A DNA stretch of 56,414 bases from a virus (taxonomy: Duplodnaviria; Caudoviricetes). The stretch covers positions 1-56,414 of IMG/VR virus record IMGVR_UViG_3300024180_000007; one strand, given 5' to 3'. Below the pieces are notes generated by a model. The model saw only the letters and a list, made by a program, of their open reading frames with translations. It ran no database searches and was not told the DNA's origin. Positions 5,138 to 51,348 of this stretch are shown one piece after another. Within the stretch, counting starts at the first letter, position 1. Each line of letters opens with the position of its first letter. The position numbers and the translations under genes are program-made.

Positions 5138-7364
5138 AATATATATAGAACTAAAAAATATAGTTCCTAAAAATGTTTTGACTACAAAAAACAAAGCAAG
5201 AACCTGGACCTACGGTTATAATGAAAAATACAATTTTGTTGTAGTGTCTAAAACAGGTCAAATTGATCAGATAATAAATATTAGTGGTTTAAATGTTGCG
5301 CTTCCCAAAGCTCCTAAAGACATTTTTAAAAGATCTAAAAAAAAAGAAGACCAATACTGGGAGGCTAAAATATTACCAAAACAATTAACAAGAATTAAAT
5401 CTATATTTCAATGGCATGATACTCCTTCGAGTTTTAAAAACGAGTGGGTAGATTATATTGAAAATGAATTTAATTTTAGAGAAGAAGGATTTTGGTTTAT
5501 AAATAAAGGAGTTCCTACTTACATCACTGGAACGCATTACATGTATTTACAGTGGACTAAGATTGATGTTGGATTTCCAGACTTTAGAGAAGCTAACAGA
5601 ATATTTTATATTTTTTGGGAAGCCTGTAAGGCAGACAAAAGAAGTTTTGGAATGGATTACTTAAAAATAAGACGTTCTGGCTTTTCATTTATGGCCTCAT
5701 GCGAGGGAGTTAATATGGGTACAATAACTAAAGATGCTCGTATAGGTATACTTTCTAAAACTGGATCTGATGCAAAAAAAATGTTTACAGATAAAATTGT
5801 TCCTATATCTAATAATTATCCATTCTTTTTTAAACCTATACAAGATGGTATGGATAAGCCAAAAACTGAATTAGCTTATAGAGTTCCTGCTGCAAAAATT
5901 ACTAAAAAAAATATGTATTTAAATGAAGAGCAAGAGCTTGAAGGTTTAGATACTACTATTGATTGGAAAAATACTGGAGACAACAGTTATGATGGTGAGA
6001 AGCTTCGACTACTACTACACGATGAAAGTGGTAAATGGGAGCGTCCTGATAATATTTTAAATAACTGGAGGGTTACAAAAACTTGTTTACGTTTAGGTAG
6101 TAAAATAGTCGGTAAGTGTATGATGGGTTCTACATCTAATGCATTAGAGAAAGGTGGTGGTAATTTTAAAAAATTATATAACGATTCTAATGTGGGATCA
6201 CGAAACTCTAATGGTCAAACTAAAAGTGGGTTATATTCACTTTTTATCCCAATGGAGTGGAATATGGAAGGGTTTATAGATAGGTATGGAATGCCTGTAT
6301 TTAATAATCCATCAAGTCCAGTATTAGGAATTGACGGTGAAATGATACATCAAGGAGCTATAGATTACTGGCAGAACGAGGTTGATTCATTATCTAATGA
6401 CCCTGATGCTTTAAATGAATTTTATAGACAGTTTCCGAGAACTGAGTCTCACGCATTTAGAGATGAAAGTAAACAGTCTTTATTTAATTTAACTAAAATA
6501 TATCAACAAATTGATTATAATGACTCATTAATTATGGGTCAAAATATAACTCAAGGATCGTTTTCTTGGCATAACGGAGTTAAAGATACCAGGGTAATTT
6601 GGACTCCAGATAAAAGAGGAAGATTTTTTGTATCTTGGTTACCAGAAATGTCGTTACAAAATAAAGTAACAATAAAAAATGGGAGGAAATATCCAGGGAA
6701 CGAACACATTGGATCGTTTGGTTGTGACTCTTATGATATTTCTGGAGTTGTTGTAGGGAAGGGATCTAATGGTTCTTTGCATGGTATGACAAAGTTTAAT
6801 ATGGATAACGCTCCAAGTAATGAGTTTTTTTTAGAATATATAGCACGTCCTCAGACTGCAGAAATATTTTTTGAAGAAGTATTAATGGCTTGTGTGTTTT
6901 ATGGGATGCCAATATTGTGTGAAAACAATAAACCTCGATTACTCTATCATTTTAAAAATAGAGGTTATAGAGGGTTTAGTACAAATAGGCCTGACAAAAC
7001 ATTTAATAAATTATCCAAAACAGAAAAAGAATTAGGTGGTATACCAAATTCAAGTGAGGATGTAAAACAATCTCACGCTTCTGCAATAGAATCTTACATA
7101 GAAAAGCATGTAGGTTTAGATTTAGTTCAAAATTATAGAGATAGTGATGAGATGGGTGTAATGTATTTTCAAAGAACATTAGAGGATTGGGCAAAGTTTG
7201 ATATTAACAATAGAACTAAGTTTGATGCTTCTATAAGTTCAGGGTTAGCAATCATGGCTAATCAAAAACACTTGTATACCCCAGCTAAAGAAAAATCGAA
7301 AATAAGCATTAACTTTGCAAGATATAATAATAAGAATTCAGTTAGTCAATTACTTAATAAATGA
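5115..7364 (+). CDS. terL: Terminase large subunit
   Basis: KIRRSGFS (Walker A), LLLHDESGKW (Walker B), MMGSTS (motif III), GCDSYD nuclease motif; directly precedes portal. Start codon uncertain (TTG). Confidence 0.92.
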   Translation: MQNQDQNKIYIELKNIVPKNVLTTKNKARTWTYGYNEKYNFVVVSKTGQIDQIINISGLNVALPKAPKDIFKRSKKKEDQYWEAKILPKQLTRIKSIFQWHDTPSSFKNEWVDYIENEFNFREEGFWFINKGVPTYITGTHYMYLQWTKIDVGFPDFREANRIFYIFWEACKADKRSFGMDYLKIRRSGFSFMASCEGVNMGTITKDARIGILSKTGSDAKKMFTDKIVPISNNYPFFFKPIQDGMDKPKTELAYRVPAAKITKKNMYLNEEQELEGLDTTIDWKNTGDNSYDGEKLRLLLHDESGKWERPDNILNNWRVTKTCLRLGSKIVGKCMMGSTSNALEKGGGNFKKLYNDSNVGSRNSNGQTKSGLYSLFIPMEWNMEGFIDRYGMPVFNNPSSPVLGIDGEMIHQGAIDYWQNEVDSLSNDPDALNEFYRQFPRTESHAFRDESKQSLFNLTKIYQQIDYNDSLIMGQNITQGSFSWHNGVKDTRVIWTPDKRGRFFVSWLPEMSLQNKVTIKNGRKYPGNEHIGSFGCDSYDISGVVVGKGSNGSLHGMTKFNMDNAPSNEFFLEYIARPQTAEIFFEEVLMACVFYGMPILCENNKPRLLYHFKNRGYRGFSTNRPDKTFNKLSKTEKELGGIPNSSEDVKQSHASAIESYIEKHVGLDLVQNYRDSDEMGVMYFQRTLEDWAKFDINNRTKFDASISSGLAIMANQKHLYTPAKEKSKISINFARYNNKNSVSQLLNK

Positions 7365-13612: not shown

Positions 13613-14590
13613 ATGCCAATAAATGAAGTAAGAAATACCGTATTAGCAATAGCTAATAAAAATAATTACGGATACATATCTCCACAAGATTTTAATCTTT
13701 ATGCTTCTCAAGCACAAATGGATATGTTTGAAGATTACTTTTATCAATACAACAATCAGTTAGTAAAAGAAAACCAAAGAACTTCAGGGACTGGATACGC
13801 AGATATAACAAAAGGTTTAGTGGAAGTTATTGATACTTTTTACGTAGACACTCCTTTATTAAACTCTGCAACAACGCAGTTGGGAGATATACAGACTAAT
13901 TTATACACACTGCCTTCTGATTATTATTTAATTAATAAGATGATGGTATACACAAAAGAATTAGCTTCAGGGGTTACCACTTCGACCAACGGCGGTTCTA
14001 TAGCGGTGAACGACACTTCTGCAGACTTTATTGCAGCAGGAGTATCGGTAGGAGATATAGTATCTACTATTACAGGAGGAGTGGTTTATAATACTGTAAT
14101 TTCACAAGTAGTTAGTGCAACTAATCTTTTAGTTTTTGCAACAACAGGCGCACAAGTCTGGAATGCTGTAGGAAAAACATACAACATATATTCAGCTAAT
14201 AATGTTATGGATGCTGAACGTGTTTCACAAGCTAAAATAACTATGCTAAATAATTCTATTTTAACAAAACCAACTTTAGGGTATCCTGCTTATACTCAGG
14301 ATGCTTTAGTTGCTCAGGCTTTTCCTATTACAATAAATAAAATAGGACAGCTTACATCGCAGTATGTTAGATATCCATTTACACCAAACTGGACTTATGC
14401 TACATTATTGGCTGGTGAACCTTTGTTTGACCCAACCGCAGCAGATTATCAAGACTTTGAATTACCTTTATCGGATGAACCTGCATTGATTGCAAAAATA
14501 TGTCAGTATGTAGGTATAGAAATAAGAGAGGCTGATGTTTATAATTTTGGTACTCAAGAATTACAACAAGAACAAATAACACAAGGATAG
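13613..14590 (+). CDS. Tail tubular/adaptor (ring) protein
   Basis: NKNNYGYISPQDFNLYA, YTLPSDYY, YVRYP..PNW, DFELP; first gene of the tail operon; carries an inserted beta-rich domain. Confidence 0.7.
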   Translation: MPINEVRNTVLAIANKNNYGYISPQDFNLYASQAQMDMFEDYFYQYNNQLVKENQRTSGTGYADITKGLVEVIDTFYVDTPLLNSATTQLGDIQTNLYTLPSDYYLINKMMVYTKELASGVTTSTNGGSIAVNDTSADFIAAGVSVGDIVSTITGGVVYNTVISQVVSATNLLVFATTGAQVWNAVGKTYNIYSANNVMDAERVSQAKITMLNNSILTKPTLGYPAYTQDALVAQAFPITINKIGQLTSQYVRYPFTPNWTYATLLAGEPLFDPTAADYQDFELPLSDEPALIAKICQYVGIEIREADVYNFGTQELQQEQITQG

Positions 14591-15514
14591 ATGGCATATA
14601 TAAACGACTACGCGTATTACACGAACTCAGGAGCAACTCCAACTAATTCAAACTGGGGATCATATCAGTATGTTTCATTAGCGGATATAGTTAACAACTT
14701 TATGTTAATGTATCAAGGTAATCATGAATTAATAAATAATATTGAAAGATATCAGATATTATTTCACGCCAAAAGAGGGATACAGGAATTAAATTATGAT
14801 GCAATGAAGGAGATTAAAATTCTTCAATTAGACATCACACAACAATTAAGATTTGTATTACCACAAGATTATGTTAATTGGGTTAGAATATCTCAATTTA
14901 AAAATGGTGGTTTATATCCTTTATCAGAAAATATACAAACAAACTGGTCTTCTTCTTATTTACAAGATAATCAGTCTAATGTTTTGTTTGATCAAAATGG
15001 AAACGTTTTAAGACCACAAGATTCACAACTTGATTTATCTACTATTTTAAGAGGAAACAAAAGTATTTACTTAAATCAAAACAGTCAATACAATGGAGCT
15101 GAAGGATATAACTATGAAGGCGATTGGTATTTTGATTATCCTATAGGGTCACGATTTGGTTTAAATACTGAGACTGCAAATGCAAATCCTACATTCACTA
15201 TTGACAAACAATCTGGTGTAATTAATTTTAGTAATATATCAGGAGCTGCATCGGTTGTTTTAGAGTATGTTTCTGACGGAATGAAGAATGGAGTAGATAG
15301 CGAAGTACAATTAAATAAGTTATTTGAAGAATATATATATGCTTATATTAGATATTCTATTTTAAATGGTAGATTAGGAGTTCAGGAGTATGTTGTTAAT
15401 AGAGCGAGAAAAGACAAATCTTCTTTATTAAGAAATGCAAAAATACGATTAAGTAATATACATCCTGGAAGACTTTTAATGAATTTAAGAGGTCAAAATA
15501 AAATTATAAAATAA
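14591..15514 (+). CDS. Tail tubular/ring structural protein
   Basis: AKRGIQELNYD, LPQDYVNWVRIS, VVLEYVSDG; tail operon position. Confidence 0.7.
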   Translation: MAYINDYAYYTNSGATPTNSNWGSYQYVSLADIVNNFMLMYQGNHELINNIERYQILFHAKRGIQELNYDAMKEIKILQLDITQQLRFVLPQDYVNWVRISQFKNGGLYPLSENIQTNWSSSYLQDNQSNVLFDQNGNVLRPQDSQLDLSTILRGNKSIYLNQNSQYNGAEGYNYEGDWYFDYPIGSRFGLNTETANANPTFTIDKQSGVINFSNISGAASVVLEYVSDGMKNGVDSEVQLNKLFEEYIYAYIRYSILNGRLGVQEYVVNRARKDKSSLLRNAKIRLSNIHPGRLLMNLRGQNKIIK

Positions 15515-23721: not shown

Positions 23722-26037
23722 ATGGCGGAAGATACATCAAGACCTTCAGGGGCAAATAAATATTCTATATATGCTCAAAGAAGTGTAGATAGCACTCAAA
23801 TGGACTGGAACGCAGCGTCTAAAGAATTAGTGACTGGGCTGCAAACCATACAGGCCGACAGAAATGCTCGTAAAGCTGCGATTGAAGAATCTACTCAGAA
23901 TGCTATAGAGCAGTTAAGCAAAGTTCCAGAAACTGGAACTCAAGACGCTGCATCTTTACTGATAAACGGTTCAAGTATGTCTGTAAAAGGTATACAAGAA
24001 CAAAACAATTTATTAAAGCGTGGTTTAATTAGCCCTTCAGATTATAAGCTGTATATGCAGCAACAAAAAAATGGTTATTCAAGTTTAAGTACGGCTGTAA
24101 AAGGTTGGGATGACTGGGCTGTTCAAGCAAAAGACAGATTACAAGCTGCAAAAGATGGCGGTGCAACAGCTTCAGAGTTAGAAATATTTTCAAATTTATC
24201 CGTTGAAGCTTTAGGTAATTTGAGAAATAAAAAACTATGGTCTAACCCTACTAACGGTAAAATGCAGTTAGTAACAATGGGTAAGAATACAAAAACTGGT
24301 TTATATGATGTAATGCCTGATTACGAAAAAAGAAAACAAGACTATCAAAATCCTAACCAGATAATGAATTTCATGAAGTTTGAACAGGATAGAATTGATG
24401 TTGATGATATGGCAACTGCTCAAACTGCTCAAATAGCAGACATTATACAAATAACTCTGGAAGGAGATGAGTATAAAAGACTGACAGGTGGTGGAAGACA
24501 GTTAAGCACAGAAGACTTTAGAAACCTTGGAGACTTTGGTACAGATGAAAATGGTAATGCAATAACATATGACATGTGGAAGTCTTCACAGTTAGATGCT
24601 ATGATTGGAGCGCCTGGAGATAAAAATAACATGAATGCGGCACAGGTTTTAACAAACTCTGGAAGATTTTTCTTTGCAGAAACAGAAAGTCAATTTGAGG
24701 AGAAACATCCAGGGATAGATAAAAAATATATGATTAAAGTGGATATGAGTTCAGGACAACCAGTTCCTGAAATGACTGATTCTCAGTACAAAGATGCTCG
24801 TAGACTTGCTGACATTGCAGTTGAATCACAAGTAAGTCATATAGAAAAAGTTGCAGAAGCAGCTAAATCAGCACAAGCACCACCACAACCAAATAGCACT
24901 ACAGTTGCAAAAAACAAACTGGATAGATCAATGGTTGGGTATATGGATGATGCAAATGCTATTGCGTCTGATGACGAATCAATATTTGAGGCTACAGCAC
25001 AAGATCGTATAGTAGCTTTAAATAAAGAAATGCAAAATTCTGGTGGTGATCCGAATAAAATGATTGATAGCATAACTCGTGATGACACATCTATTAAATT
25101 TACTTTAGCCGACGGAACAGTAGAAACAATACCAAGACTTGATGATAACGGTGTTCCAAGAAACGCTGAAGAGGTTGTTAGAGAGGTTTATAGATTGATT
25201 ACACCTCAAACATCTGAATATCAAAACTCATATAAAGACGCTGCAATATTATATAAAAAAGAGCCAGGCGGAGGTTTTAGAGCAACAGATAGAGATATGA
25301 CTGATATTGAGTTAATTGCAGCAGCTAAAGAAAAAAGAGCTGTGGCTAAATTGGATGCTGATGGAATTCCAAAAGAAATAGCTGAAACTAATGACCAAGG
25401 TGTTGCAACTGGTAAAATGATTCAAAATCCAGCATACGAACCAGCTCTTTCACAAGCGATTCTTAATGACACAGATAATATTACTGCTGATGAAAAAAAG
25501 GCTGTAAAGAAAAGAATATTAAAGAATATAACTGGAGAGAAATACAGAGCTTTAGCTCCTCTTCCAGCTCTAAAACAAAACACTGCTATAATTGGCGCTA
25601 AAATGGTAGACGGTGATGCAGTGGGAGCTACTGGTACAGAGCTTATCGAAGAAAAAGTAGGTGATAAATTATCAGGACTTAATGCTGGTTCTATTGGTGA
25701 CGATCCAGTAGAAGTTAATGATGTTTTAAGTCAGGTTATGAATGATTACCTTCCAGACGAAATAAAGGGTGGTGCTAAAGTTATGTTTAAAAAAGACAGA
25801 ATTGATGATAGTAAATGGGTTATTGAAGTTTCTTATTTTGATAGAGCTGGAGTACAGCAATCACTTCCTCCAATATATCCAGAGGTAGGAGCTATGCTGA
25901 ATACGAAAGGAGCAACACCTTCTCAGTTAAACGAAATGATGCATAAAGCAGCACAAGAAGTTTTAAACGAAGAAAACGCAAGACTTACAACAAGAAATCA
26001 AAGAGGTACAGGTAAAAACCGAAAAAAGTTTAATTAA
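23722..26037 (+). CDS. Internal virion (ejection) protein
   Basis: 771 aa, helical; TAATG overlap with the giant gene. Confidence 0.7.
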   Translation: MAEDTSRPSGANKYSIYAQRSVDSTQMDWNAASKELVTGLQTIQADRNARKAAIEESTQNAIEQLSKVPETGTQDAASLLINGSSMSVKGIQEQNNLLKRGLISPSDYKLYMQQQKNGYSSLSTAVKGWDDWAVQAKDRLQAAKDGGATASELEIFSNLSVEALGNLRNKKLWSNPTNGKMQLVTMGKNTKTGLYDVMPDYEKRKQDYQNPNQIMNFMKFEQDRIDVDDMATAQTAQIADIIQITLEGDEYKRLTGGGRQLSTEDFRNLGDFGTDENGNAITYDMWKSSQLDAMIGAPGDKNNMNAAQVLTNSGRFFFAETESQFEEKHPGIDKKYMIKVDMSSGQPVPEMTDSQYKDARRLADIAVESQVSHIEKVAEAAKSAQAPPQPNSTTVAKNKLDRSMVGYMDDANAIASDDESIFEATAQDRIVALNKEMQNSGGDPNKMIDSITRDDTSIKFTLADGTVETIPRLDDNGVPRNAEEVVREVYRLITPQTSEYQNSYKDAAILYKKEPGGGFRATDRDMTDIELIAAAKEKRAVAKLDADGIPKEIAETNDQGVATGKMIQNPAYEPALSQAILNDTDNITADEKKAVKKRILKNITGEKYRALAPLPALKQNTAIIGAKMVDGDAVGATGTELIEEKVGDKLSGLNAGSIGDDPVEVNDVLSQVMNDYLPDEIKGGAKVMFKKDRIDDSKWVIEVSYFDRAGVQQSLPPIYPEVGAMLNTKGATPSQLNEMMHKAAQEVLNEENARLTTRNQRGTGKNRKKFN

Positions 26038-29000
26038 TGGATAAGTTTACAGAGTTATACAATTACTTGAAGGAAGAAGGATTAACAGATTTATCTGCTG
26101 AAGAATTTAAAGCTGAGTATGCAGCAGGTACTGCTAAAAACACAGAGTTATATTCTTATTTAAAATCTGAAAAATTAACAGATTTAGATGCTGAAAAATT
26201 TAATATAGAGTATTTTCCTGGTGTTGAAAAAAAAAATCCAAACGACATTTCTCCTTCAAACACTCCAGAGGTTATTACGGACTCTACTACCGAAACTCCA
26301 GAGGTCGTGGATACTTCTTTGGATACCTCCACACTTGAAAAACCTTTAGATGAAAATACTGTAGTAGATGTACAGGAAGAAGACACTACAGTTACTGAGT
26401 TCCCTGCATACGATCCGCGTGAGCAGGGTAAGGAAATAAATGCAAATCCAATTACATATAATTCCAGCGACTCTCAATTTGACAAATCATTAGCTTTTGT
26501 AACTAAAGATTTAATAGACAGAGAAGAAAGTGAAGTAGTCAACAGAATGAAATATCATTTTGAAGATTATGGTTTTGACTTTGAACAAGGCGGTGGATTT
26601 ATGAGTGGATTAGATGGTATGAAAGTTACGTCTAAAGATGATCCAACTAAAAGCATAAACATTAATCTTGATCCTGTTTTTGGAGATTTTTTTGGTGGTG
26701 AATCAGGACCTGCAAAAGAACTTAGAAAGTTTTTAAAAGAAAACAGAAGAACTGACCAGAGAATGGAAAGTCTGGATGCTTCTTATGATAAAAACAGAAA
26801 AAAATATTTTAGTGCTGAAGCAACTAAAGAAGACATTCAAGCTGTAAGAAATTCAGCAAAGAATCTAAATTCTAATTATAAAGTTTATCAGGACAGAAAA
26901 GCTATTCATGAAGCAGAAATAGACGCTTTATTAGGACAACCTAAAGAAATACAAAATACTCCTGAGTGGGAGTTAAAATATCAGCAAACTTTATTAGCAG
27001 GAAAAAGATTAAAACAATTTAAGAATCAATTAACAACAAATTATAATAGTTATAAAAAATTTGAAGGTCAAATAAACTCATCTGTTGGTAATTACATTGA
27101 CATGAAAGAAGCGGACGATAGTACGTTTTTTGGTGGTTTAGTAAATGATATTGTTGGGCCTGGTGTCAGTGATGTTCTTGCAGCTGTTTGGGGTGCTGGT
27201 GTTGATGGGTTTTATAAAGCGGCGCAGTTTATTTACGAAGATTTTGGGATGAATGCTGAGGAAAAAAAAGATCGTTACATTGATATTGCAAGAGATCTTG
27301 GGTATCCAGTTCCTGAAAATATAGAAGACGATGCTGTTTATACAAAGTGGTTAGAAAACTTGCAGGATCAAGGGTTTGATGATGATAAAGCAGAAGGTGA
27401 ATTTTCAATTAGTACGTTTTCTAAAGAAACAATGGAACGACTTGAAGCTGATGGTTTTGATTTAAGTAAACCAACTGTAAATGGACAATACTTCAATAAA
27501 AATCAGTCAGGATTAAATAGATTTTTAAATGGACAATACATTGACCTTCCTGACTATGCTTATGATAAAACAAAAGGTGAAAGACTAAAACGATTAGTAT
27601 TAGATCAAGAGGTAAAAGAAAATAAAAATCCACAAAAAGATTTTATAAAAAAATACTGGAACGAAATTGTTTCAGCTGATGACATTTCAGATGAAAAATA
27701 CGCAAAACAATCTAATAGTAACATTGTTTACACTGGACTTTCTGGTCTTGCTAAATCACTTCCATCTGTATTAACTTCTTTTGCGTCCAGAGGAAAAATA
27801 GCTCCAGCTGTTGGATTAGGAGCAGCAAAAAGAAATTTAATTGCAAAAGGATTAGGCTTAACAACAAGAGGTGGCATTGCTCAAACAGTTTCATTTGCTA
27901 TGCTCCAAGCTGAAGCAATGAATGTTGAAATGAACAATGACCCTGATTTTAAGTATGTTACTGAATCAGAAAGAAAGAACATTGTTATACCTACTGCTAT
28001 CACAGTTGGTATATTAGAGCGTTATGGTTTTAGAAATATAGCAGGTAACAAAGCTATAATGACTGGTTTAATGAACAAGGTAACTAATATGTTACCTAAA
28101 AACGCAACTGCAGCAATGTTTAAAAACCAAATGAACAAACTTGTTCAAAGTAATATTGCAAAAGGAATTTTTTCAAACACAGCTGTAAAAACTGCTGCGA
28201 CTTTTACTGGTCGAGTTACTAAAGCTGCTTTAGCAGAAGCAGAAACAGGTGGTCTTCAGCAAATAGCTGAAATGGGATACAAGGATGTATGGAATAACAT
28301 GAATAATAAAGACATGTTTGATCAACCTGAATTATGGACTAAAGAATTTTGGGGAACAGTTGGACATGCTGCAGCTGCTGAGGCTGTTGGTGGTTTTGTA
28401 ATGGGTGTTCCAGGAGCAGTAATTGCAGCGGCTAAAAACAAGACTTCCGATTTACTATCTGATGATCTTGTTGAAATGTTTGACATGATAAGAAATGATG
28501 AAATAACTGTAGAAGCTTATCAAACACAGTTAGACTTAGGCGTTTCTAATGGTAAGATAACATCAGAGCAAGCATCAAAACAGATGTTAGATTTTCAAAC
28601 ATTAAGTGGAGCTGCTAACACTCTTCCAAGTGACTTAGATGTTAACTCAAGAAAAAAAGGATTAGTTTTAATTTTTGAGCAGCAACAATTAGAAGCTGAA
28701 ATGGAAAAAATGAATAAGAATTTAAATTCTTATAAAACCAGAGAAGCCAGAGTTGAACAAATAAAAACCGAAATTGGACAGCTTGGGACTAATCAAGCTC
28801 AAGCAAATACTAATTTAAAAAATGAGACTGAAGGAATTCAAGAATCTGTTTTAGTAACAGAAGAAGATGCCACAAAATCTTTACAAGATAAGGGGGTGCA
28901 AAACCCTACAGTTGAACAAATTAAAACCGAACAAGATGCCCTACAAAAGCAAAGCACAACGAGCCTGGATGCACAAGAATCTTCCAGAAGTGGCGAAACG

Positions 29001-32000
29001 GTGGGACAAAGCGTACCCAACATCCAGTCTACCCAACAGAGCAAAAGCGAAACCGAAACTCAAAACAGGGAGAAGACCCAAGAGGAAGTAAGTCAAGAAG
29101 AGCAAAATGATATAGACGATTTCTTTGGTGATGAAGTTTTAGATGACGTTGAAACCTCTTCAGATAATTTATCTATAAATAGAAAACAAGTAGAGGGAGA
29201 TACAGAAATAGAGAACACAACTTTAGCATCAGCTGTAGTAAATAAAGCTAAAAAAGCTGCACGTGCAATTGCAAAAATAGCACCTGAAGTAAAAATAGTT
29301 TTACACGACACACAAGCAGAATACGAAAAGTATGCAACAAAAGGTAGTCGTGGGTATTACAATCCAAACAGTAAAGTTATACATATTAACTTAACTAAAG
29401 CTAAAGGAAATACAGTGGCACACGAAGTTTTTCATGCGGTGTTTTTAGATAAAATATCAGGTGGAGATGTTCAAGCTCAACAAGCAGCTTTAAAATTAAT
29501 AACTTCTGTAAGAAAAACCTTACCAGCTGAATCTTTATTAGCTAAAAGAATAGATAATTTTGCTAAAAATTATGATGAAAATATTAAAAATGAAGAGAAG
29601 TTAGCAGAATTATTCTCTTTGATGGCCACTGAATATAAAACATTAAAGAAGCCAGGGAAGAACAAAGTTATAGAATTTATAAGATCAATGGCGGCTAAGT
29701 TAGGCGTTACAATACCTGGTGGTTTTGGAAAAACAGACGAGTCAGTTATAGATTTTATGAACGCATTTTCTAAAAAAGTTAGAACTGGTACGGAAATAAC
29801 AGAAGGTGATGTAGATGTTTTAAATAAAATAGATGAAGAGTTAGATGTAGAGCAAGAACAGGGTGAATCTGGGCAAGTTGGTACTTTTACTTTTAAAGGT
29901 AGAGAATCAAAAGCTCCAGACATTAATACAGATACCAGGTCTTATGCAAAAAACATTATTCAAAAAGATTTACAAGATTATAATGGGCAAAACTTTGTGA
30001 CTAACATGTATGATTTTACTAATGCTGGACCAACTGACATTGGAGCTGGTATTGTATTAGACTTGTATGGAGGTAAAAATTATGTTGCTGATATGATGGA
30101 AAAAACAGGAACTAAATTAGGAGAGGTTTCTAATGTTGCTGCTTTTAACACTAAAGGTCAAGCTGAAGGATTTATTAAAAACGCTATAGATGGAAATGCA
30201 AATTTATTTGCTCCACACGTAGGAACTAAAGAAGGTTCTTGGCAGTTTCAACAAAATATATTTGAGCAGTTAACTGAAAAATTATTAGATAATAATATAC
30301 TAACTAATCAAGAGTTAATTGAAAGTTTTAATGATGGTTTAAAAAGTAAAAATGGTCAAAGTGCATTAAATATATTTAATAAAAAATATAAAAAAAACCT
30401 AACTAATTTAAATGAATTTAAAGATAATCCTAAAAGATTAGTAGAGCTTTTAGATATTGATAATAATTATTCGCCAGATTTAAGAAAAATATTAAACGAT
30501 AAAATAGCTTCAAACAAAAAAGTTCAAGCTGCTTTAGGTATTAAAAATAAAATTCAATTTGCTGAGTTATTAGAAGACCCTATGAATGTAGGAAGTCAAA
30601 AATTTGATATCATAGGTCTTGTTGAATTTGATAATACTACTTTTAAAACTCCTTCAAGACCAAAGAAAGGAGATGCTGATTATCATCCTTCTTTTGCATG
30701 GACTGTAAAAGCCAAAATAAAAGCTATTGTTCAACCTACAAATTTTTATCAAAGCACTGAGGTTACCGATTCTTATACAAAATTTAACAAGTCAGGAGCA
30801 GTAGTTTCTACAAGAGAAAATACTAAAGACTTTAAGTCGTCTAATGTATCCAGTAGTGCAGGTTCAGGGCCTAAAGTAGCCACTGTAAAATCTGAAATAA
30901 GACAAGGTAGAGAGCAATCTACTGAACAGCAAGTAAAAGATCAAACTGGAATGCCAGCAAGTGGGTTCTATAGCGCTCAAGCTATGGTGTCAGACATCCA
31001 ACGTCAGTTTAATAGAATTGGTCCAGGATATGTAGCTAAAAGAGCTAAACAAGGAGCTTATGGGGGCGGAGGCGGAGTGTTTGTTGTTGGTCCTAATAAA
31101 CGTATTGTAAAAAATCCTACACGAAAAGGACGTCAGCAGGCAATGGATAATGAAAACGATTTGCTTAGAATTATAATAGCTGGCCGAGAAGAAGGAGGTT
31201 TTGAAGATGCAGCTATAAAAGATTATTTAAAGAGAAGAAAAAGAAAGGTTGATGGTAAAACAGCAAGTGCTTATAGTGCAAAAGAAATTAATGCTGCATT
31301 CAAAGTTTTAGAAAGCGAAGCTTTTGATTCTTACATGTTTAGAGAATACCCTACAAGTTTTAATGACATAAAAGGTGGTTTTCTGGCTGGTCTTAAATTA
31401 ATGAAAGATGTTGATACTTACTATAAAAAATTAGTTGAAAAGAATAATTTAATTAAAGACAGAGTTGCAAAAAACAGAAAGACAAAACAAGTTCCTTTAA
31501 CTGACGAACAAATTAATTTGAAAGTTTTAGATTACTTTATGTCGCTTCCAGGATACAAAAGCGTAGGGGTAAAAGGCAAAAGACAGACATCCCAGCAGCT
31601 TGCTATGGAACGTGATATGTTAAACATACTGCTTCCTGATCCATTAAAGGCTAATCCTAAACGTATTGCAGCAATAAACAGAAGAATAAAAAACATAAAG
31701 TTCACTGAAAGAAACCTTAAAGGTGTTCAGAGAGCTTTAAGAAATTACATAAGAACAGTACTACCAAGGGATTTATATACTAAAAAAGAAATAACTGATT
31801 TAATTGATAAAGTGAATAGAGTAAACGCTACAAACTTTGAATCAGTTAAAGATGAGGTTTTTAAAATAGTTACTACAAAAACAAACAAAAGACTTGAGAG
31901 TGTTTTATTTAAGATGCTTGATAAAGCTTATACCACTATTCAAAGCGGTAGATTTAAAGGTGTTAAAATTGATAATGAAACTCGTAAAAAGTTAAATCGT

Positions 32001-34928
32001 ATCAATAAATTAGTAGTGAACCCTAAGTCAACTGGCGATCAAATAATGGAAGCTAATGAAAAACTTTTGAAGTTATATAACCAAGTTTCTACAGAAGAGA
32101 TAGTAGACGAAAAAGATAAAAAAAGTCGTAAGACTAAATCTACATTTAGTAAAAGTGATTTGCAGCAGATGGCTGAAATTACATTAGCTATGCAGATAAA
32201 CACATCTTTTACTCAAGACATGAATGACTCTAATAAAACTACTCAGTTAAGCTCAGTAATCAATAGCTTAAAACAAATAGAAGAGTCTGGGAAAGCTAAT
32301 TTTGAGTACGAATTACTACAAGACGCTATACAATACAGAGAGAATGAGAGAGCTGTATACAAGGATATGACAGGTATAGATATTGATGCAAAACAATCAC
32401 TTATTGACCAAGGTATACCTGAGAATGAAATTACTGAGTTTATGGTAAACGAAGAGTTTCAAAAAATTAAAAAAGATGTTTCACTTGATGCTAAAGAATC
32501 AGGTGGCTTAAAAGTAGAGGGTGTTATAAAAAGATTCAAAGGTTCACTAAATAGTTTAGCTACTAAAATTGAGCAAGGGTTATTTGGAAGTGCAGAAGAT
32601 ATGACAGGTTTGATAGACAGAATATCTACACAACCAGGAGAAATATTTGAAGGAGCAACTCAAGAACTTACACAGAAAAAAATACGTTCTTCTTCAAGAG
32701 TTTATAAGTCAAGAATGATTGGACAGCAATTAAGTCTTTCTAATAAAATGACAGAATTATTTGGCAACAAATGGGTTAACATAAACAGAAAAAACTCTCA
32801 GATGACTGAATCTATTGTTCGTAGTAAGGTCAAAGATGATTTACTTCAAGGACAATTAAAAGAAGCTCAAGAAAATAAAACTTTAAAGAAAGGAGAACGA
32901 ACAGCTTTAATTAATTCAATACAAAAGGAGATTGATCAAAACACAGTAAACCTAAGTCAAAACCAATTGCTTTATTATTATTCACAGATGCAAGATCCTT
33001 CTTTAGAAGGGAGCATGATAAACACTTTTAATCCTACAAGAAAGGGAAATATAGTGTTTGACAATGAATTTAAGAGTAGAATAGAGCAAGAGATATCAGA
33101 TAAATTAGATGAAAGATTAAAAGACTTATCTGAGTGGATGATAAAAGATTATTACCCATCTTCTTATGACCACTACAACAATACTTACAAGAAAATTTAC
33201 AGGACTGATATGCCTTGGAATCAAAACTATGCTGGTCGTGTGTATCGCCAAAACGAAAACGACATGGAAGCCTTAGATTTATTAGCCGACAGTCAATCAT
33301 GGATTACAAACGTTGGCTCTGCCAGTACTAAAGTAAGAGTTCAAAATACTAATCCAATAGAAAAAGTAGATGGTGTAGACGCATTACTTAATTACACCAA
33401 AGACATGGAGTATTTTGCTGCATATGGTGTTGCTATAAGAGATATAAATAAAATATTTTCATCACCAATGATAAAAGAAACCATTAAAGAAAAATTTGGT
33501 TCTACTATTTACACATACATTGATGATTCTATTAAAAAAATAGCAAACAAGGGAATACAATCACAAAGACAAATACAAGTAATAAATACCTTTAATAATA
33601 CATTTTTATTATCTCGTTTAGGTTTAAACCCAACACTTATACTAAAACAAATGACATCTTTCATCACGTATGGAAATGACATTGGTTATATAAATTGGGT
33701 TAAAAATGCTGCCATGAGTACGACTCAAGCAAAAAAATTAGTAAACGAAGTTTTAGACAACTCAATTGTTCTACAGGACAGGTACGGACAAACAATTAAA
33801 AGAGCTGTAGAGACATATGCTGATGAAAAGTTTGAAAAAATGAATGGTGGTCTTTTAGAGCGTTTTGGATTAACAAACGCAAAGCAAGACAAGATTAGTA
33901 AAATTTTAATGTGGACCACAATGACAGGGGATAAAGGTGCTATACTTGTTGGTGGTGTTCCAAATTACTTATACTATAAAAATGAATTTAAAAAGAAAAA
34001 CCCTGAAGCTTCAGAACAAGAGGTTATTGATCATGCAATAAAAAAGTTTGAAGCTGACACATTAAGAACTCAACAGTCATCTGATTTACAAGATAAAGAT
34101 TACTTTCAAACTAAAGGGGCGCTTATAAGAGCCTTTAATATGTTCTTGACAACTCCAAAACAATATTTCCGTAGAGAAATTATTGCAGCAAGAAACATGT
34201 ATAGAATTGTTAAAAGTGGCGGTAAGCAGGGTAAAGGTGTTATAAAAGATAATGGAGAATTAAATTACTGGAAAAGTTTAGGTAAATCTGCAAGAAGTTT
34301 AGCAGTGTATCATGTGGTGATGCCAGTGGTTTTTCAGTGGGTGTCTGCTGGATTGCCAGGTCTTTTAAGAGGGATGAATGATGAGGATAAAAAAGATTTA
34401 GGAATAGCCGCTCTTTTAGGTAACTTAAATGCTTTGTTTATTATAGGAAAAGTAGCCGAGACCCTTAAAGATGTTGCGTTAGGTAAGCCTTGGGCAAAAA
34501 CTCCATCAACAATTCCAATTTTAGGGCAAACATCACAGTTGGCAGATTTATACATGCGTGCGCAAAAAGCAAAAGGTGTAAAAAAAGAAGAAGCTATGAA
34601 TAAATTCATGGCAGAAGCAATTGCCCTTACAGGTATACCAGCACCACAATTAAGAAAGTTTATGAAAAACTTTTCTGAAATTGGTGACTCAAAATCTATG
34701 GGTGAGTTTATATTAAAACTTTTTAATTTTTCTGAATATCAGCAAAGAGGAGGTAAGAAAGGTAAGGGTCTTAAATTAACAAAAGCTGAACTAAAAAGAT
34801 ATTTTCCAGAACTATATCCAGACGTTCAAGAGGACGGACCATTGGAGGATTTTCTTAAATTACAAAAAGAAGCTAAAGCAGAACAAAAACGTTTAAGAAA
34901 AGAGCTTCTTGATCAAATGTATAAGTAA
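26037..34928 (+). CDS. Giant internal virion (polyvalent-type) protein with HExxH metallopeptidase-like motif
   Basis: 2963 aa; RGYYNPNSKVIHIN...AHEVFHAVF (HEVFH at 29421-29435) with downstream EEKLAE; N-terminal tandem repeat; helical C-terminus. Confidence 0.8.
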   Translation: MDKFTELYNYLKEEGLTDLSAEEFKAEYAAGTAKNTELYSYLKSEKLTDLDAEKFNIEYFPGVEKKNPNDISPSNTPEVITDSTTETPEVVDTSLDTSTLEKPLDENTVVDVQEEDTTVTEFPAYDPREQGKEINANPITYNSSDSQFDKSLAFVTKDLIDREESEVVNRMKYHFEDYGFDFEQGGGFMSGLDGMKVTSKDDPTKSININLDPVFGDFFGGESGPAKELRKFLKENRRTDQRMESLDASYDKNRKKYFSAEATKEDIQAVRNSAKNLNSNYKVYQDRKAIHEAEIDALLGQPKEIQNTPEWELKYQQTLLAGKRLKQFKNQLTTNYNSYKKFEGQINSSVGNYIDMKEADDSTFFGGLVNDIVGPGVSDVLAAVWGAGVDGFYKAAQFIYEDFGMNAEEKKDRYIDIARDLGYPVPENIEDDAVYTKWLENLQDQGFDDDKAEGEFSISTFSKETMERLEADGFDLSKPTVNGQYFNKNQSGLNRFLNGQYIDLPDYAYDKTKGERLKRLVLDQEVKENKNPQKDFIKKYWNEIVSADDISDEKYAKQSNSNIVYTGLSGLAKSLPSVLTSFASRGKIAPAVGLGAAKRNLIAKGLGLTTRGGIAQTVSFAMLQAEAMNVEMNNDPDFKYVTESERKNIVIPTAITVGILERYGFRNIAGNKAIMTGLMNKVTNMLPKNATAAMFKNQMNKLVQSNIAKGIFSNTAVKTAATFTGRVTKAALAEAETGGLQQIAEMGYKDVWNNMNNKDMFDQPELWTKEFWGTVGHAAAAEAVGGFVMGVPGAVIAAAKNKTSDLLSDDLVEMFDMIRNDEITVEAYQTQLDLGVSNGKITSEQASKQMLDFQTLSGAANTLPSDLDVNSRKKGLVLIFEQQQLEAEMEKMNKNLNSYKTREARVEQIKTEIGQLGTNQAQANTNLKNETEGIQESVLVTEEDATKSLQDKGVQNPTVEQIKTEQDALQKQSTTSLDAQESSRSGETVGQSVPNIQSTQQSKSETETQNREKTQEEVSQEEQNDIDDFFGDEVLDDVETSSDNLSINRKQVEGDTEIENTTLASAVVNKAKKAARAIAKIAPEVKIVLHDTQAEYEKYATKGSRGYYNPNSKVIHINLTKAKGNTVAHEVFHAVFLDKISGGDVQAQQAALKLITSVRKTLPAESLLAKRIDNFAKNYDENIKNEEKLAELFSLMATEYKTLKKPGKNKVIEFIRSMAAKLGVTIPGGFGKTDESVIDFMNAFSKKVRTGTEITEGDVDVLNKIDEELDVEQEQGESGQVGTFTFKGRESKAPDINTDTRSYAKNIIQKDLQDYNGQNFVTNMYDFTNAGPTDIGAGIVLDLYGGKNYVADMMEKTGTKLGEVSNVAAFNTKGQAEGFIKNAIDGNANLFAPHVGTKEGSWQFQQNIFEQLTEKLLDNNILTNQELIESFNDGLKSKNGQSALNIFNKKYKKNLTNLNEFKDNPKRLVELLDIDNNYSPDLRKILNDKIASNKKVQAALGIKNKIQFAELLEDPMNVGSQKFDIIGLVEFDNTTFKTPSRPKKGDADYHPSFAWTVKAKIKAIVQPTNFYQSTEVTDSYTKFNKSGAVVSTRENTKDFKSSNVSSSAGSGPKVATVKSEIRQGREQSTEQQVKDQTGMPASGFYSAQAMVSDIQRQFNRIGPGYVAKRAKQGAYGGGGGVFVVGPNKRIVKNPTRKGRQQAMDNENDLLRIIIAGREEGGFEDAAIKDYLKRRKRKVDGKTASAYSAKEINAAFKVLESEAFDSYMFREYPTSFNDIKGGFLAGLKLMKDVDTYYKKLVEKNNLIKDRVAKNRKTKQVPLTDEQINLKVLDYFMSLPGYKSVGVKGKRQTSQQLAMERDMLNILLPDPLKANPKRIAAINRRIKNIKFTERNLKGVQRALRNYIRTVLPRDLYTKKEITDLIDKVNRVNATNFESVKDEVFKIVTTKTNKRLESVLFKMLDKAYTTIQSGRFKGVKIDNETRKKLNRINKLVVNPKSTGDQIMEANEKLLKLYNQVSTEEIVDEKDKKSRKTKSTFSKSDLQQMAEITLAMQINTSFTQDMNDSNKTTQLSSVINSLKQIEESGKANFEYELLQDAIQYRENERAVYKDMTGIDIDAKQSLIDQGIPENEITEFMVNEEFQKIKKDVSLDAKESGGLKVEGVIKRFKGSLNSLATKIEQGLFGSAEDMTGLIDRISTQPGEIFEGATQELTQKKIRSSSRVYKSRMIGQQLSLSNKMTELFGNKWVNINRKNSQMTESIVRSKVKDDLLQGQLKEAQENKTLKKGERTALINSIQKEIDQNTVNLSQNQLLYYYSQMQDPSLEGSMINTFNPTRKGNIVFDNEFKSRIEQEISDKLDERLKDLSEWMIKDYYPSSYDHYNNTYKKIYRTDMPWNQNYAGRVYRQNENDMEALDLLADSQSWITNVGSASTKVRVQNTNPIEKVDGVDALLNYTKDMEYFAAYGVAIRDINKIFSSPMIKETIKEKFGSTIYTYIDDSIKKIANKGIQSQRQIQVINTFNNTFLLSRLGLNPTLILKQMTSFITYGNDIGYINWVKNAAMSTTQAKKLVNEVLDNSIVLQDRYGQTIKRAVETYADEKFEKMNGGLLERFGLTNAKQDKISKILMWTTMTGDKGAILVGGVPNYLYYKNEFKKKNPEASEQEVIDHAIKKFEADTLRTQQSSDLQDKDYFQTKGALIRAFNMFLTTPKQYFRREIIAARNMYRIVKSGGKQGKGVIKDNGELNYWKSLGKSARSLAVYHVVMPVVFQWVSAGLPGLLRGMNDEDKKDLGIAALLGNLNALFIIGKVAETLKDVALGKPWAKTPSTIPILGQTSQLADLYMRAQKAKGVKKEEAMNKFMAEAIALTGIPAPQLRKFMKNFSEIGDSKSMGEFILKLFNFSEYQQRGGKKGKGLKLTKAELKRYFPELYPDVQEDGPLEDFLKLQKEAKAEQKRLRKELLDQMYK
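26043..26213 (+). repeat. Tandem protein repeat at the N-terminus of the giant protein
   Basis: TELYNYLKEEGLTDLSAEEFKAEY / TELYSYLKSEKLTDLDAEKFNIEY; DNA copies of ACAGAGTTATA and ATTAACAGATTTA. Confidence 0.85.
26227..26338 (+). other. Candidate programmed -1 frameshift/slippage site (A10) and 33-codon trans-frame tail
   Basis: GAA AAA AAA AAT; the -1 frame is closed by TGA at 26225-27 and then reads SKRHFSFKHSRGYYGLYYRNSRGRGYFFGYLHT* to 26338. Confidence 0.5.
28936..29091 (+). CDS. Nested +1-frame gene: 51-aa basic protein of the MP(F/Y)KSKAQR type
   Basis: MPYKSKAQRAWMHKNLPEVAKRWDKAYPTSSLPNRAKAKPKLKTGRRPKRK*; A-rich leader; locally raised GC. Confidence 0.7.
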   Translation: MPYKSKAQRAWMHKNLPEVAKRWDKAYPTSSLPNRAKAKPKLKTGRRPKRK

Positions 34929-36521: not shown

Positions 36522-36835
36522 TTTATATATGATTTTAAATTTATTAAATCTAAGTATTCATCAGATTCTATGATGTGAAAATCAGTTAGTGTAAGAAACT
36601 CCCCAGCAGACCTTAAAATTTCTATTGCAAAATATACTGGTTCATCTCTATGTATTACAACCCCACCAACCACGTATGTTGTAAGTTCATTTATAGGGTA
36701 CTCTTTTAGGTTGTTGTCTATATAGTCAGATATAAGTATTTTAAGAGTTATATCACTTAGTTCAGATAAAGAATCAATAAAATCATCTTCAACCTCATAT
36801 CCTTTATCCTTTATATACTTCGGTTTTAAACCCAT
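36518..36835 (-). CDS. Hypothetical acidic protein
   Basis: Packed ORF with ATGA overlap. Confidence 0.6.
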   Translation of the reverse strand: MGLKPKYIKDKGYEVEDDFIDSLSELSDITLKILISDYIDNNLKEYPINELTTYVVGGVVIHRDEPVYFAIEILRSAGEFLTLTDFHIIESDEYLDLINLKSYIK

Positions 36836-48294: not shown

Positions 48295-49893
48295 ATGAGC
48301 AATTACATTCCAAAGAACCTTGAGTTCGATCAACCTGGTCGAAATAAATTAATCAAAGGGATTACAAAAATTTCTAAAGCAGTTAAGAGTACGTTAGGCC
48401 CACGCGGAAAAACGGTTCTAATAGAATCACCTGAACATATCGGAGGTATGACAATTACAAAAGATGGTGTAACTGTTGCTAACTCTATTTTTTTAGATGA
48501 TCCTGTAGAAAACCTTGCGGTTCAAATGCTAAAAGATGCAGCACGTAGGACTGCTAACTCAGCTGGGGATGGAACTACTACAGCAATTGTATTAACCGAG
48601 GCTATTATAAAAGCTGGAGAAAGAAATTTATCAAAAGAGAATAATATAACTGAGGTTGTGAAATCAATAAACCAATTCAGTAAAATTATTCTTAAAGAAT
48701 TAAAAAAGAACTCACGAAAAATTACTAAAGCAAGACTACTGGATGTTGCAACAATTTCAGCAAACAACGATAAAGTTTTAGGAAAAATAATTGCTGACGC
48801 ATATAGCAAGGTTGGCAAAAATGGAATAGTTACTGTAGAGCGTTCTCAAAACCATGAGACGTATGCAACTGTTACAAACGGAATAAAAGTTGATAGAGGC
48901 TATACTTCAAACTTATTTATCACAAACCAAAAAAATGACGAGTCAGTTTTAGAAGACGTGTTGGTTTTAGTTTGTGACCAGGAGATAAGTAACATTCTAC
49001 AAATAGAAAGTATATTAAAGCCAATCATTCAGCAAAACAAAAAGCTTCTCATCATTGGTCCATGCTCAGTCAATGTTGTGAACACCCTGGCGGCAAACGT
49101 GGTGCGTAACGGACTTAAGTTATGTAATATTATACCTCCACAATTTGGATATAAACAACACGAGCTTATGCAAGACATTGCGTTGTCGGTAGGGGCGAAA
49201 TACTTTTCAGAAAAGACTGGAGATGATTTAAGTCTGTTAAGCATGAAAGATCTTGGTCATGCAGATAAAATTATTTCAGGAAAAAGTCAAACGGTTATTA
49301 TTAAAAATAATCAAATAACTGAAGAGATAGAAAAAAGAATTTCTGATCTTAAAGAACAGCAGGAGAATACAGAGTTAGTTGCAGACAAAGAATTTATAAA
49401 CGAGCGTATTGCAAGTTTGTCTGGATCTATTGGAGCTATTTATGTTGGAGGTAATTCTGATGTAGAGCAAAAAGAAAAGTATGACAGGGTTGAAGATGCC
49501 GTGTGTGCTGTCCGTAGTGCTTTAGAAGAAGGTATTGTAAAAGGTGGAGGAATGGCACTATTAAATTGTCAAAGAAAAATAGAAGAAGTATTTATGACTA
49601 AAGTAAACGATGATGAGAAAACAGCGTTTCTAATTTTGTCAGATGCTATTGAAGCTCCAGCTGTGCAAATTTTAGAGAATGCTGGAAAAAAATATGGAGA
49701 CATTTATCCTCATGAAGATATACAAAAAAATGAGGACTACAATGTAAAGACTGAAAAGTATGGAGACTTTTTTAAGATGGGTGTTATAGATCCATTGAAA
49801 GTAACTAAGACTGCTTTTGAAAATGCAGTAAGTGTAGCTACTACTATTTTAACAACTAATGCAATAATAACACACGCGCGAGCTAAAGAATAA
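48295..49893 (+). CDS. groEL: Phage chaperonin GroEL
   Basis: KSTLGPRG, ITKDGVTVA, AGDGTTTA, ATISAN, RVEDAVCA, GIVKGGG, GVIDPLKV; lacks the GGM tail. Confidence 0.96.
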   Translation: MSNYIPKNLEFDQPGRNKLIKGITKISKAVKSTLGPRGKTVLIESPEHIGGMTITKDGVTVANSIFLDDPVENLAVQMLKDAARRTANSAGDGTTTAIVLTEAIIKAGERNLSKENNITEVVKSINQFSKIILKELKKNSRKITKARLLDVATISANNDKVLGKIIADAYSKVGKNGIVTVERSQNHETYATVTNGIKVDRGYTSNLFITNQKNDESVLEDVLVLVCDQEISNILQIESILKPIIQQNKKLLIIGPCSVNVVNTLAANVVRNGLKLCNIIPPQFGYKQHELMQDIALSVGAKYFSEKTGDDLSLLSMKDLGHADKIISGKSQTVIIKNNQITEEIEKRISDLKEQQENTELVADKEFINERIASLSGSIGAIYVGGNSDVEQKEKYDRVEDAVCAVRSALEEGIVKGGGMALLNCQRKIEEVFMTKVNDDEKTAFLILSDAIEAPAVQILENAGKKYGDIYPHEDIQKNEDYNVKTEKYGDFFKMGVIDPLKVTKTAFENAVSVATTILTTNAIITHARAKE

Positions 49894-50660: not shown

Positions 50661-50759
50661 ATGCCACAAGGAATGGGAACATACGGTTCTAAGGTTGGAA
50701 GGCCAAAATCAAAAAAGAAAGTAGTTAAGAAGAAGGTTATTAAGAAAAAAAAGAAATAG
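50661..50759 (+). CDS. 32-aa Lys-rich peptide (not in ORF track)
   Basis: MPQGMGTYGSKVGRPKSKKKVVKKKVIKKKKK*. Confidence 0.72.
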   Translation: MPQGMGTYGSKVGRPKSKKKVVKKKVIKKKKK

Positions 50760-50761
50760 TT

Positions 50762-50971
50762 ATGCCAGATCCAAAAAGAAAAAGAGTAAGAACTCAAGTT
50801 TGTAAAACAAACAAAAAAGGAGAAAAAAAGTGTAAGTACAAGATGGTTAAAAGAACACCAAAGCAGTTAAAAGCTTATGACGCAATGAAATCGTCAAATA
50901 AAAAACGTAACTCAAGTTTTGGAAAACTAAGTGATCTTGATATTACAAGTCCAGGGCCTATACAAAGATAA
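50762..50971 (+). CDS. Small Lys/Arg-rich protein (MPDPK start)
   Basis: Packed ORF; same N-terminus as 53309 and 53713. Confidence 0.65.
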   Translation: MPDPKRKRVRTQVCKTNKKGEKKCKYKMVKRTPKQLKAYDAMKSSNKKRNSSFGKLSDLDITSPGPIQR

Positions 50972-50975
50972 GTTC

Positions 50976-51290: not shown

Positions 51291-51311
51291 AAAAGTTTTT
51301 ATAAATATTTG

Positions 51312-51319: not shown

Positions 51320-51348
51320 TAATATACCAAAATTAATAGCTGAATACA

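Follow-up and report, generated by a model that had tools for sequence, protein, structure and literature searches.

A conserved gene for a small basic phage protein, probably dual-coded in the linker of a giant presumed virion protein of a marine tailed phage

The DNA considered here, hereafter the window, is a stretch of 56,414 nucleotides (nt), positions 1 to 56,414 of IMG/VR virus record IMGVR_UViG_3300024180_000007 (Duplodnaviria; Caudoviricetes), and represents a fragment of a virus record, with a completeness rated at 87%. Its structural module is podovirus-like and includes genes for the large terminase, the portal and several proteins assigned to 'virion structural protein' PHROGs; GroEL/GroES, an amidase and a holin are encoded as well. 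Within the giant gene of this module lies a complete small open reading frame (ORF), termed the nested gene in the following, which is read in the +1 frame and whose product is a member of an extensive family of small phage proteins that has no name. Judged from homology and substitution patterns, 28936-29091 is a real, conserved gene of a marine flavobacterial phage and not a compositional accident. The giant protein itself is without a Pfam or PHROG match and is presumed to be a virion protein, either internal or ejected; a homologous giant gene is labelled 'structural protein' in the record of a cultured Elemovirus. The coordinates of the features are collected in Table 1.

Table 1. Positions, strands and main attributes of the features at the nested locus of the window.
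Feature	Position	Strand	Attributes
Nested gene	28936..29091	+	51 codons plus TAA; +1 frame of the giant gene
Host (giant) gene	26037..34928	+	ORF of 2963 codons; last gene of the structural module
HExxH zincin-like domain	29160..29915	+	giant-protein residues 1042-1293; HEVFH at residue 1129
Predicted translation initiation region of the nested gene	28906..28965	+	A-rich leader; nearly structure-free 60 nt
22-nt near-repeat, copy 1	28752..28773	+	giant frame reads VEQIKTE
22-nt near-repeat, copy 2	28911..28932	+	leader of the nested gene
Low-variation stretch upstream of the nested ATG	28816..28935	+	eight close relatives, all codon positions

The initial annotation had proposed a complete gene of 51 codons in the +1 frame of the giant virion gene, and the ORF is indeed present, running from the ATG at 28936 to the TAA at 29089-29091 with an offset of 2899 nt relative to the giant ORF (26037-34928), of which it covers codons 967-1018. 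Its product reads MPYKSKAQRAWMHKNLPEVAKRWDKAYPTSSLPNRAKAKPKLKTGRRPKRK and has a computed isoelectric point (pI) of 11.5 and a net charge of about +15, with an N-terminus of the MP[YF]KSKAQ type followed by two helices, an LPNRAK motif and a tail of Lys, Arg and Pro. AlphaFold2 run with an alignment predicted helices at residues 6-15 and 17-26 and coil for the rest, at a mean predicted local distance difference test score (pLDDT) of 81.8. An in-frame ATG further upstream, at 28867, would give a product of 74 amino acids (aa), an extension that relatives do not retain. Read in the giant frame, the same 156 nt give DALQKQSTTSLDAQESSRSGETVGQSVPNIQSTQQSKSETETQNREKTQEEVS, an acidic, polar, low-complexity segment of pI 4.5, in keeping with the linker that had been proposed for the host frame; the local rise in GC content reported alongside is equally real, with a maximum of 0.487 at 28925-29074 vs 0.16-0.43 in those windows of 27500-30500 that lie clear of the nested gene.

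The small peptide had been likened to stand-alone phage proteins beginning MPFKS.AQR, a likeness that is borne out by cultured phages, by a large protein collection and by profile matches. In a tblastn search against cultured phages, the matches cover the first 25 residues and begin exactly at annotated start codons; the homologues are gene 48 of Streptomyces phage FlowerPower (72 aa) and URG13095 of the marine phage 023Pt_psg01 (39 aa), which share the same N-terminal motif and a basic tail. A match of the FlowerPower homologue to phrog_385 reached only E = 0.027 and was not used, and a DNA search with 1.2 kb around the nested gene returned no match among cultured phages. In the large protein collection, a protein of 51 residues (P0005) is 82% identical over 51/51 residues (E = 1.9e-18), and a second (P0006) matches at E = 7.5e-7 (database of 5.8 billion); the relatives in this collection include one of 74 residues. 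A tblastn scan of IMG/VR yielded 52 loci with relatives. A profile and the underlying alignment (A1) were then built from 39 members, the window copy included, and the window frame matches this profile, which contains its own sequence, at E = 1.2e-25. Among 1.84 billion entries, the profile reached E <= 0.001 for 4324 cluster representatives and E <= 1e-10 for 258, most of the representatives being stand-alone proteins of 45-70 residues that start at the same Met; by hand count, the match runs from residue 1 in 133/150 representatives among the matches listed. A second search returned 1723 proteins at E <= 1e-5 among 3353 candidates, and the 120 matches listed are devoid of Pfam domains, with 'hypothetical protein' as their sole name. 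The tBLASTn search with the 51-mer and the search with the family profile found stand-alone and nested copies alike, and the homologues form a large family.

The family may be described by an MP[YF]KSKAQ N-terminus, a two-helix hairpin, an LPxR/HVK motif and a Lys/Arg tail, within some 40-80 residues. M1, P2, S5 and Q8 are invariant in alignment A1, the window start codon aligns with the family start, and the window peptide combines the sequence match and the N-terminal motif with the hairpin, LPNRAK and the basic tail. In longer members, the module stands at the N-terminus of other domains: those above the Pfam cut-off are IF3_C (P0024) and Cupin_2 (P0116), weak P-loop and ParB-like matches fall below it, and 22/29 of the longer members scanned are without any domain match. 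P0024, with 128 residues, joins an MPFKS module directly to a complete IF3_C (Pfam E = 1.5e-40); either a phage carries an IF3 variant here, or the protein is a chimera created by assembly. Within the window, a search with the family profile found no paralogue of the nested gene elsewhere; the kinship that had been suggested with the basic peptides at 50661-54287 did not hold up, as the profile gives only E = 4.5-5.5 there. A literature search of open-access papers and bioRxiv found the family undescribed, the N-terminal motif strings occurring only in unrelated uses.

Members of the family occur in three genomic arrangements. Nested copies were found at 36 loci, many of them near-duplicates, which comprise the window, 30/52 of the IMG/VR loci and five others (L074, L076, L077, L082 and L089). 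In 36/36 of these the small gene lies at +1 relative to the giant ORF and starts with ATG. The host ORFs fall into about six groups without mutual BLAST similarity (the window clade with Elemovirus; L036 with L082; L053 with L040; L044; L052; L089), the GC content of the loci ranges from 0.32 to 0.63, and the frame-0 text over every nested copy is linker-like, with few hydrophobic residues. One nested copy, L076, belongs to the cultured Flavobacterium phage vB_FspP_elemoE_6-9C (NC_055854.1), in which it occupies L076:8180-8308 and whose record holds no feature for the nested gene inside a 'structural protein' of 3694 residues; P0005 is the only nested copy that is present as a predicted protein in the protein collection. 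In the adjacent arrangement (L067, L068), the small gene begins 2 nt past the stop of a giant gene whose product aligns over its full length with that of the window at 32% identity and whose linker is without a nested gene. The other 22/52 IMG/VR loci have the stand-alone form, in tightly packed operons. Nested copies occur in both sequence subtypes of alignment A1, which hints at more than one capture event, as opposed to a single capture and later exchange of giant-gene parts in a mosaic fashion.

Two of the stand-alone loci have further peculiarities. At L033 (4811-6899), the small gene (6001-6165) is located between ORFs that match the N- and C-parts of the large terminase (phrog_2 positions 204-464 and 480-616); the arrangement suggests a terminase gene divided around the small gene, whether by an intron, an insertion or a true split, and L043 is similar. 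At L049 (5300-7887), the copy stands between homologues (phrog_14543 and phrog_13977) of the window genes 13613-14590 and 14591-15514, a layout from which it follows that the small gene has moved within one type of structural module. In addition, the marine phage 023Pt_psg01 has a GroES gene a few genes from its stand-alone small gene, and the GroES-like and GroEL-like genes of the window lie at 3369-3938 and 48295-49893.

The neighbour of the nested gene in the giant protein is a zincin-like HExxH domain, which was found in 13 giant homologues and whose H88, E89 and H92 are invariant in 12 homologues. Its similarity to IrrE/ImmA-type metallopeptidases is weak (IrrE E = 0.0019 over 35 residues, the motif only), its model is of low confidence (pLDDT 64.6), and Foldseek returned no match at E <= 0.001. 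Throughout the window clade, the nested gene occupies the linker on the N-terminal side of this domain, with 23 to about 335 residues in between, the gap in the window being 23 residues (aa 1019-1041). As regards function, the main rival is that the nested gene is expressed as a dedicated partner of the giant protein, such as an inhibitor, chaperone or maturation factor, for example of the HExxH domain. This would accord with the position of the nested gene N-terminal to the domain in all 11 homologous giant genes that carry it, with the small gene directly following the giant gene in L067/L068, and with the logic of Rz/Rz1, in which the partner's gene lies inside or beside the target's gene. 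Nevertheless, L064-L066 keep the HExxH domain at 65-68% identity without any copy of the small gene, nested copies also occur in giant ORFs devoid of the domain (L036, L044, L052, L053 and L040), and thousands of stand-alone members reside in phages without detectable giant homologues, so that a dedicated partner appears unlikely. A predicted complex of the nested peptide with the HExxH domain scored 0.00 and is uninformative either way.

The pattern of substitutions distinguishes the two frames. In loci L006-L011 and L021, the nested peptide is 80-92% identical to that of the window and the frame-0 reading of the same bases 60-77% identical, whereas the giant protein is 32-37% identical over 200 aa on each side. 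Among 15 unique sequences, variable columns at peptide codon positions 1/2/3 amount to 18/21/40, and a parsimony tree assigns 88 peptide-silent changes with an effect on the giant protein vs 31 of the reverse kind (binomial p = 2.8e-7), the opportunity for the two classes in the window sequence being 94 vs 92 single changes. In eight close relatives, minimal changes at giant codon positions 1/2/3 number 133/76/294 upstream and 188/165/320 downstream of the nested gene, compared with 13/5/4 (codons 1-29) and 20/11/14 (codons 30-51) inside it; in the flanks, variation is greatest at the third position of the giant codons, and in the nested stretch at the first, which corresponds to the third position of the peptide codons. 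The length is 51 codons, without gaps, in all 20 closest loci and 49-53 codons in L026, L027 and L029, the ATG and stop are kept in relatives, and no stop interrupts the frame in relatives. On these comparisons, purifying selection is judged to act mainly on the +1 frame over 28936-29091. The overprinted gene proposed in the initial annotation has accordingly gained support from stand-alone homologues and frame-specific selection, and it is intact at 36/36 nested loci. The co-expression with ejection cargo that had been proposed alongside may be surmised from the place of the nested gene within the final gene of the structural module and from the label of the Elemovirus homologue.

These data bear directly on the possibility that a gene captured by fusion or insertion is now silent, its conservation reflecting a constraint on the giant gene or on the RNA. 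Such a view could appeal to the compositional openness of the stretch in three frames and to the relatives that are without the gene. It is contradicted, however, by the ratio of 88 to 31 changes in favour of the +1 frame, by the switch of the periodicity of variation to +1 exactly within the ORF, by the much higher identity of the peptide than of its flanks, and by the conservation of ATG, length and stop, which together make a silent remnant very improbable.

The start region of the nested gene has features expected for the probable hosts. According to a study of Flavobacterium johnsoniae (PMC6847099), initiation in this bacterium proceeds without Shine-Dalgarno pairing and is favoured by A at -3, -6, -12 and -13 together with low mRNA structure. 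Flavobacteriia are the likely hosts: among cultured phages, those of Flavobacterium have the giant genes most closely related to that of the window, and a contig binned as part of a Polaribacter metagenome-assembled genome carries a copy whose peptide is 75% identical, which is weak host evidence. The leader ...ATTAAAACCGAACAAG-ATG has A at -3, -6, -12 and -13. All four occur in 12/17 unique nested-copy leaders and three of the four in 3 more, as against only 4/185 internal ATGs of the giant gene with all four; the two exceptions, L036 and L044, are from GC-richer phages and have GAGGAG / GAGGTG at Shine-Dalgarno distance. The minimum free energy of the 60 nt around the nested ATG is -0.4 kcal/mol vs a mean of -6.9 (standard deviation 3.3) across 60-nt windows of the giant gene, of which just 1% are as open, and in 11/15 relatives the nested start falls within the least-structured 7% of its own giant gene. 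With a position weight matrix of start contexts from 41 gene starts of the phage, the nested ATG ranks 7/185, a result that is compatible with a real start and is not decisive.

The sequence preceding the ATG is itself conserved. Only 4 minimal changes occur in the 69 sites 28867-28935 in the eight close relatives, and the 90-nt window from 28816 has 3/1/4 changes; here the giant frame reads ..TEEDATKSLQDKGVQNPTVEQIKTEQ, with the motif EEDA..SL...G..NPT.EQIKTEQ, which is retained in L007 and L074 despite about 30% overall identity. The leader also contains one copy of a 22-nt near-repeat. The repeat reported in the initial annotation is real, with copies that are 20/22 identical and two matches in 0/100 shuffles, and the coordinates then given, 28751 and 28910, are one base off. 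Since copy 1 is not conserved in more distant relatives, a role in the leader belongs to copy 2 alone. As a separate observation, AAAACCGAA has 4 occurrences in the window vs 0.43 expected, a number reached in 0/100 shuffles; the sites are 26015-26023, 28764-28772, 28923-28931 and, on the minus strand, 36819-36827, and two of them form part of the leaders of the giant gene (26015) and of the nested gene. No motif of the Bacteroidetes-type promoter consensus was seen by eye in 28800-28935, where no tool was used.

A programmed +1 frameshift before 28936 is a further possibility; it would end at 29091 and yield an N-terminal fragment of 1017 residues with a basic C-terminal domain. The common strand, the +1 relation and the 23 codons over which the +1 frame is open upstream of the ATG in the window would all permit it, yet many relatives (such as L014, L022, L023, L026, L027, L039-41 and L052) have that frame closed only 4-7 codons ahead of the ATG, an ATG is found at all nested loci, free-standing genes of the family begin with this Met, and inspection by eye of the last 21 nt before the ATG showed no conserved shift-prone motif. 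A frameshift product is hence a highly improbable account of the ORF. Elsewhere in the giant gene, an A10 run at 26227-26236, 64 codons into the gene (VEKKNP), is a possible candidate slippage site; it stands at the same place in 7/7 relatives checked, including ones 74-80% identical nearby, and A9 runs are not enriched across the window (11 found vs 15 expected). With slippage at this site, as supposed in the initial annotation, one gene might conceivably yield three products.

Public RNA data contain the nested stretch. Of the 24 listed public runs, 16 are recorded as RNA, and 9 of those hold at least a fifth of the sampled words of the stretch. In four metatranscriptome runs examined, contigs identical to the window extend over the nested gene (28719-29510, 28797-29184, 28716-29053 and 28902-29151). 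The starts at 28716 and 28719 in two of these runs were considered as a transcript start and rejected, as the depth is 3-5 and no DNA run is available for comparison.

Taken together, the evidence supports a reading, to which a probability of roughly 0.8 may be assigned, in which 28936-29091 is dual-coding and its small basic protein is made by internal initiation together with the virion proteins. Frame 0 would supply the acidic linker of the giant virion protein just upstream of the HExxH domain, and the +1 frame a complete, strongly basic protein of 51 residues from the large unnamed phage family. Ribosomes would initiate internally at AUG 28936 on the late mRNA of the giant gene, presumably through the Shine-Dalgarno-independent, A-rich, structure-free signals typical of Bacteroidia, so that the small protein would be produced alongside the virion proteins; its translation is put forward here as an inference from these signals. 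The giant frame could tolerate the amino-acid changes imposed by selection on the +1 frame because the stretch is only a linker there. Purine-rich DNA that encodes Lys and Arg (AAG/AAA/AGA) in one frame would read as Glu, Gln and Thr (GAA/CAA/ACA-like) in the preceding frame, which may explain the constant +1 relation and why a Lys-rich gene would fit into an acidic linker at little cost to the host protein.

A number of points weigh against this reading. The contigs in RNA runs establish presence in RNA libraries only, with DNA carry-over possible, and the mRNA of the giant gene would cover the nested stretch anyway. The score of the nested ATG against the position weight matrix, 2.9 bits, compares with a median of 4.0 for true starts. 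The samples are also redundant or selected: several loci are near-duplicates in the substitution set, which holds 21 ungapped copies of which 15 are unique, and likewise in the leader set (17 unique of 33), and the collection scans used the pattern MPYKSKAQ, so that their loci are a non-random sample and the N-terminal eight residues of the loci found are fixed by the search. The nested gene is moreover dispensable for some relatives: L064-L066, which share only the HExxH region with the giant protein of the window (65-68% identity), have no copy anywhere in their records, one of which is rated 100% complete. Finally, among 281 stop-free +1 runs in the giant gene, the one at 28858-29091 (77 codons) is the longest, and the longest run of the +2 frame (61 codons, of 377) also falls here because the stretch, with T at 15/156 nt, is T-poor and few T mean few stop codons; its composition accounts for openness in all three frames. 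Openness by itself is no proof beyond chance, and homology and substitution pattern are therefore needed to settle the matter. A meaningless chance frame in a T-poor linker, although it would account for the longest stop-free runs of both alternative frames falling here, is contradicted by full-length homology to a large stand-alone family and by frame-specific purifying selection, and its likelihood is negligible.

As to what the dual-coded protein does, a tentative guess, possible rather than probable, is a nucleic-acid-binding or packaging- or virion-associated accessory protein, as suggested by its charge, by the late-module and terminase/portal neighbourhoods of the family and by its use as an N-terminal module before varied C-terminal domains. 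A large terminase gene lies within a few genes in 9/18 of the stand-alone loci scanned, often with a portal gene, a raw count without a background rate. Such a role is drawn from context only, and the nested peptide has no curated family, solved structure or informative fold match that would speak for it: no model of Pfam, PHROGs or NCBIfam matches the peptide or the family, the PDB holds no sequence relative of the peptide, a fold search of BFVD returned only uncharacterised family members (E >= 0.098), and a feature search of the ESM Atlas returned only unnamed viral clusters. The nearest ESM Atlas cluster with a Pfam family is a viral cluster labelled DUF3008 (PF11450), with a score of 0.85, and serves as a lead only. 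DUF3008 proteins are small and basic, with an MPxKS-like N-terminal start; membership was rejected, as hmmscan gave no PF11450 match for the window peptide at E <= 10 or for the 39 family members at E <= 1.

In a broader and more speculative reading, which is rather doubtful at present, the family would constitute a late or virion component that is widespread in tailed phages and has so far gone unnoticed. It could bind either the packaged genome or the machinery of packaging or ejection and double as an N-terminal address tag for cargo domains, and its gene would have been captured repeatedly, always at +1, within acidic linkers of giant ejected proteins, the phages concerned having hosts from at least four phyla. 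If so, its placement would tie the dose and timing of the small protein to those of the giant protein, and giant virion-protein genes would be compound loci with hidden partners that gene callers systematically miss.

Irrespective of function, the locus extends the record of dual coding by a well-supported case from a large dsDNA phage, in which genome-size pressure is not the obvious cause, and points to a family of thousands that is invisible to annotation whenever it is nested. It also suggests a simple rule for +1 placement in acidic linkers, namely that purine-rich DNA reads as Lys/Arg in one frame and as Glu/Gln in the preceding one. The proposal is testable, since cultured Elemovirus phages exist and an ATG-to-ACG change would silence the nested start codon while remaining synonymous in the giant frame (GAT to GAC); meanwhile, linkers of giant virion proteins should not be assumed to be free of function in engineering or evolutionary analyses.

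Several known systems resemble parts of this arrangement. The T4 proteins IPI-III are small internal head proteins that are packaged with the DNA and carry an N-terminal capsid-targeting sequence. The analogy with the present family is functional only and concerns small, basic, late-expressed proteins with an N-terminal module, here placed before varied C-terminal domains (IF3_C, cupin and others). In phiX174, one DNA stretch gives two proteins from two frames, as for B in A and E in D, and overprinting in small phages is usually explained by genome-size pressure and the de novo birth of the overprinted gene. The present case would likewise yield two proteins from one stretch; unlike those of phiX174, however, the nested gene belongs to an old, widespread family that also occurs free-standing, and the genome is of about 60 kb. 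The nested gene was captured, not born in place.

The closest parallel in layout is provided by spanins. In lambda, Rz1 lies in the +1 frame of Rz, and the nested gene similarly lies wholly inside a larger gene, on the same strand and in the +1 frame. The Rz/Rz1 spanin family has embedded, overlapped and separated forms, as described in PMC6139136, and to the embedded, adjacent and separate spanin pairs correspond the nested, directly following (L067/L068) and stand-alone forms found here. Rz1 is an outer-membrane lipoprotein, whereas the product here is predicted to be a soluble, strongly basic helical protein; an identity as an o-spanin was rejected, the 51-residue product being without cysteine, lipobox or hydrophobic signal segment. 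Furthermore, Rz and Rz1 are lysis genes, whereas the host gene here is that of a giant virion protein, and copies of the small gene lie within several host genes without BLAST similarity to each other. By description, the host protein also resembles the polyvalent proteins of phages and conjugative elements (PMC5512222), being very large, mosaic and multi-domain, with a zincin-like HExxH domain; its own mosaicism is illustrated by the otherwise unrelated giants of L064/L066, with which this middle domain is the sole part in common. PMC5512222 does not contain the word 'overlapping', uses 'nested' only for a hairpin fold, and does not describe genes hidden in linkers. A paper on Baltic Flavobacterium phages (PMC7077304) does not mention the elemo phages, and a search of open-access papers and bioRxiv found no description of an embedded or overprinted gene in giant virion proteins of this kind. 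The arrangement is thus a variant, not described before, of the known Rz/Rz1-like layout of embedded genes.

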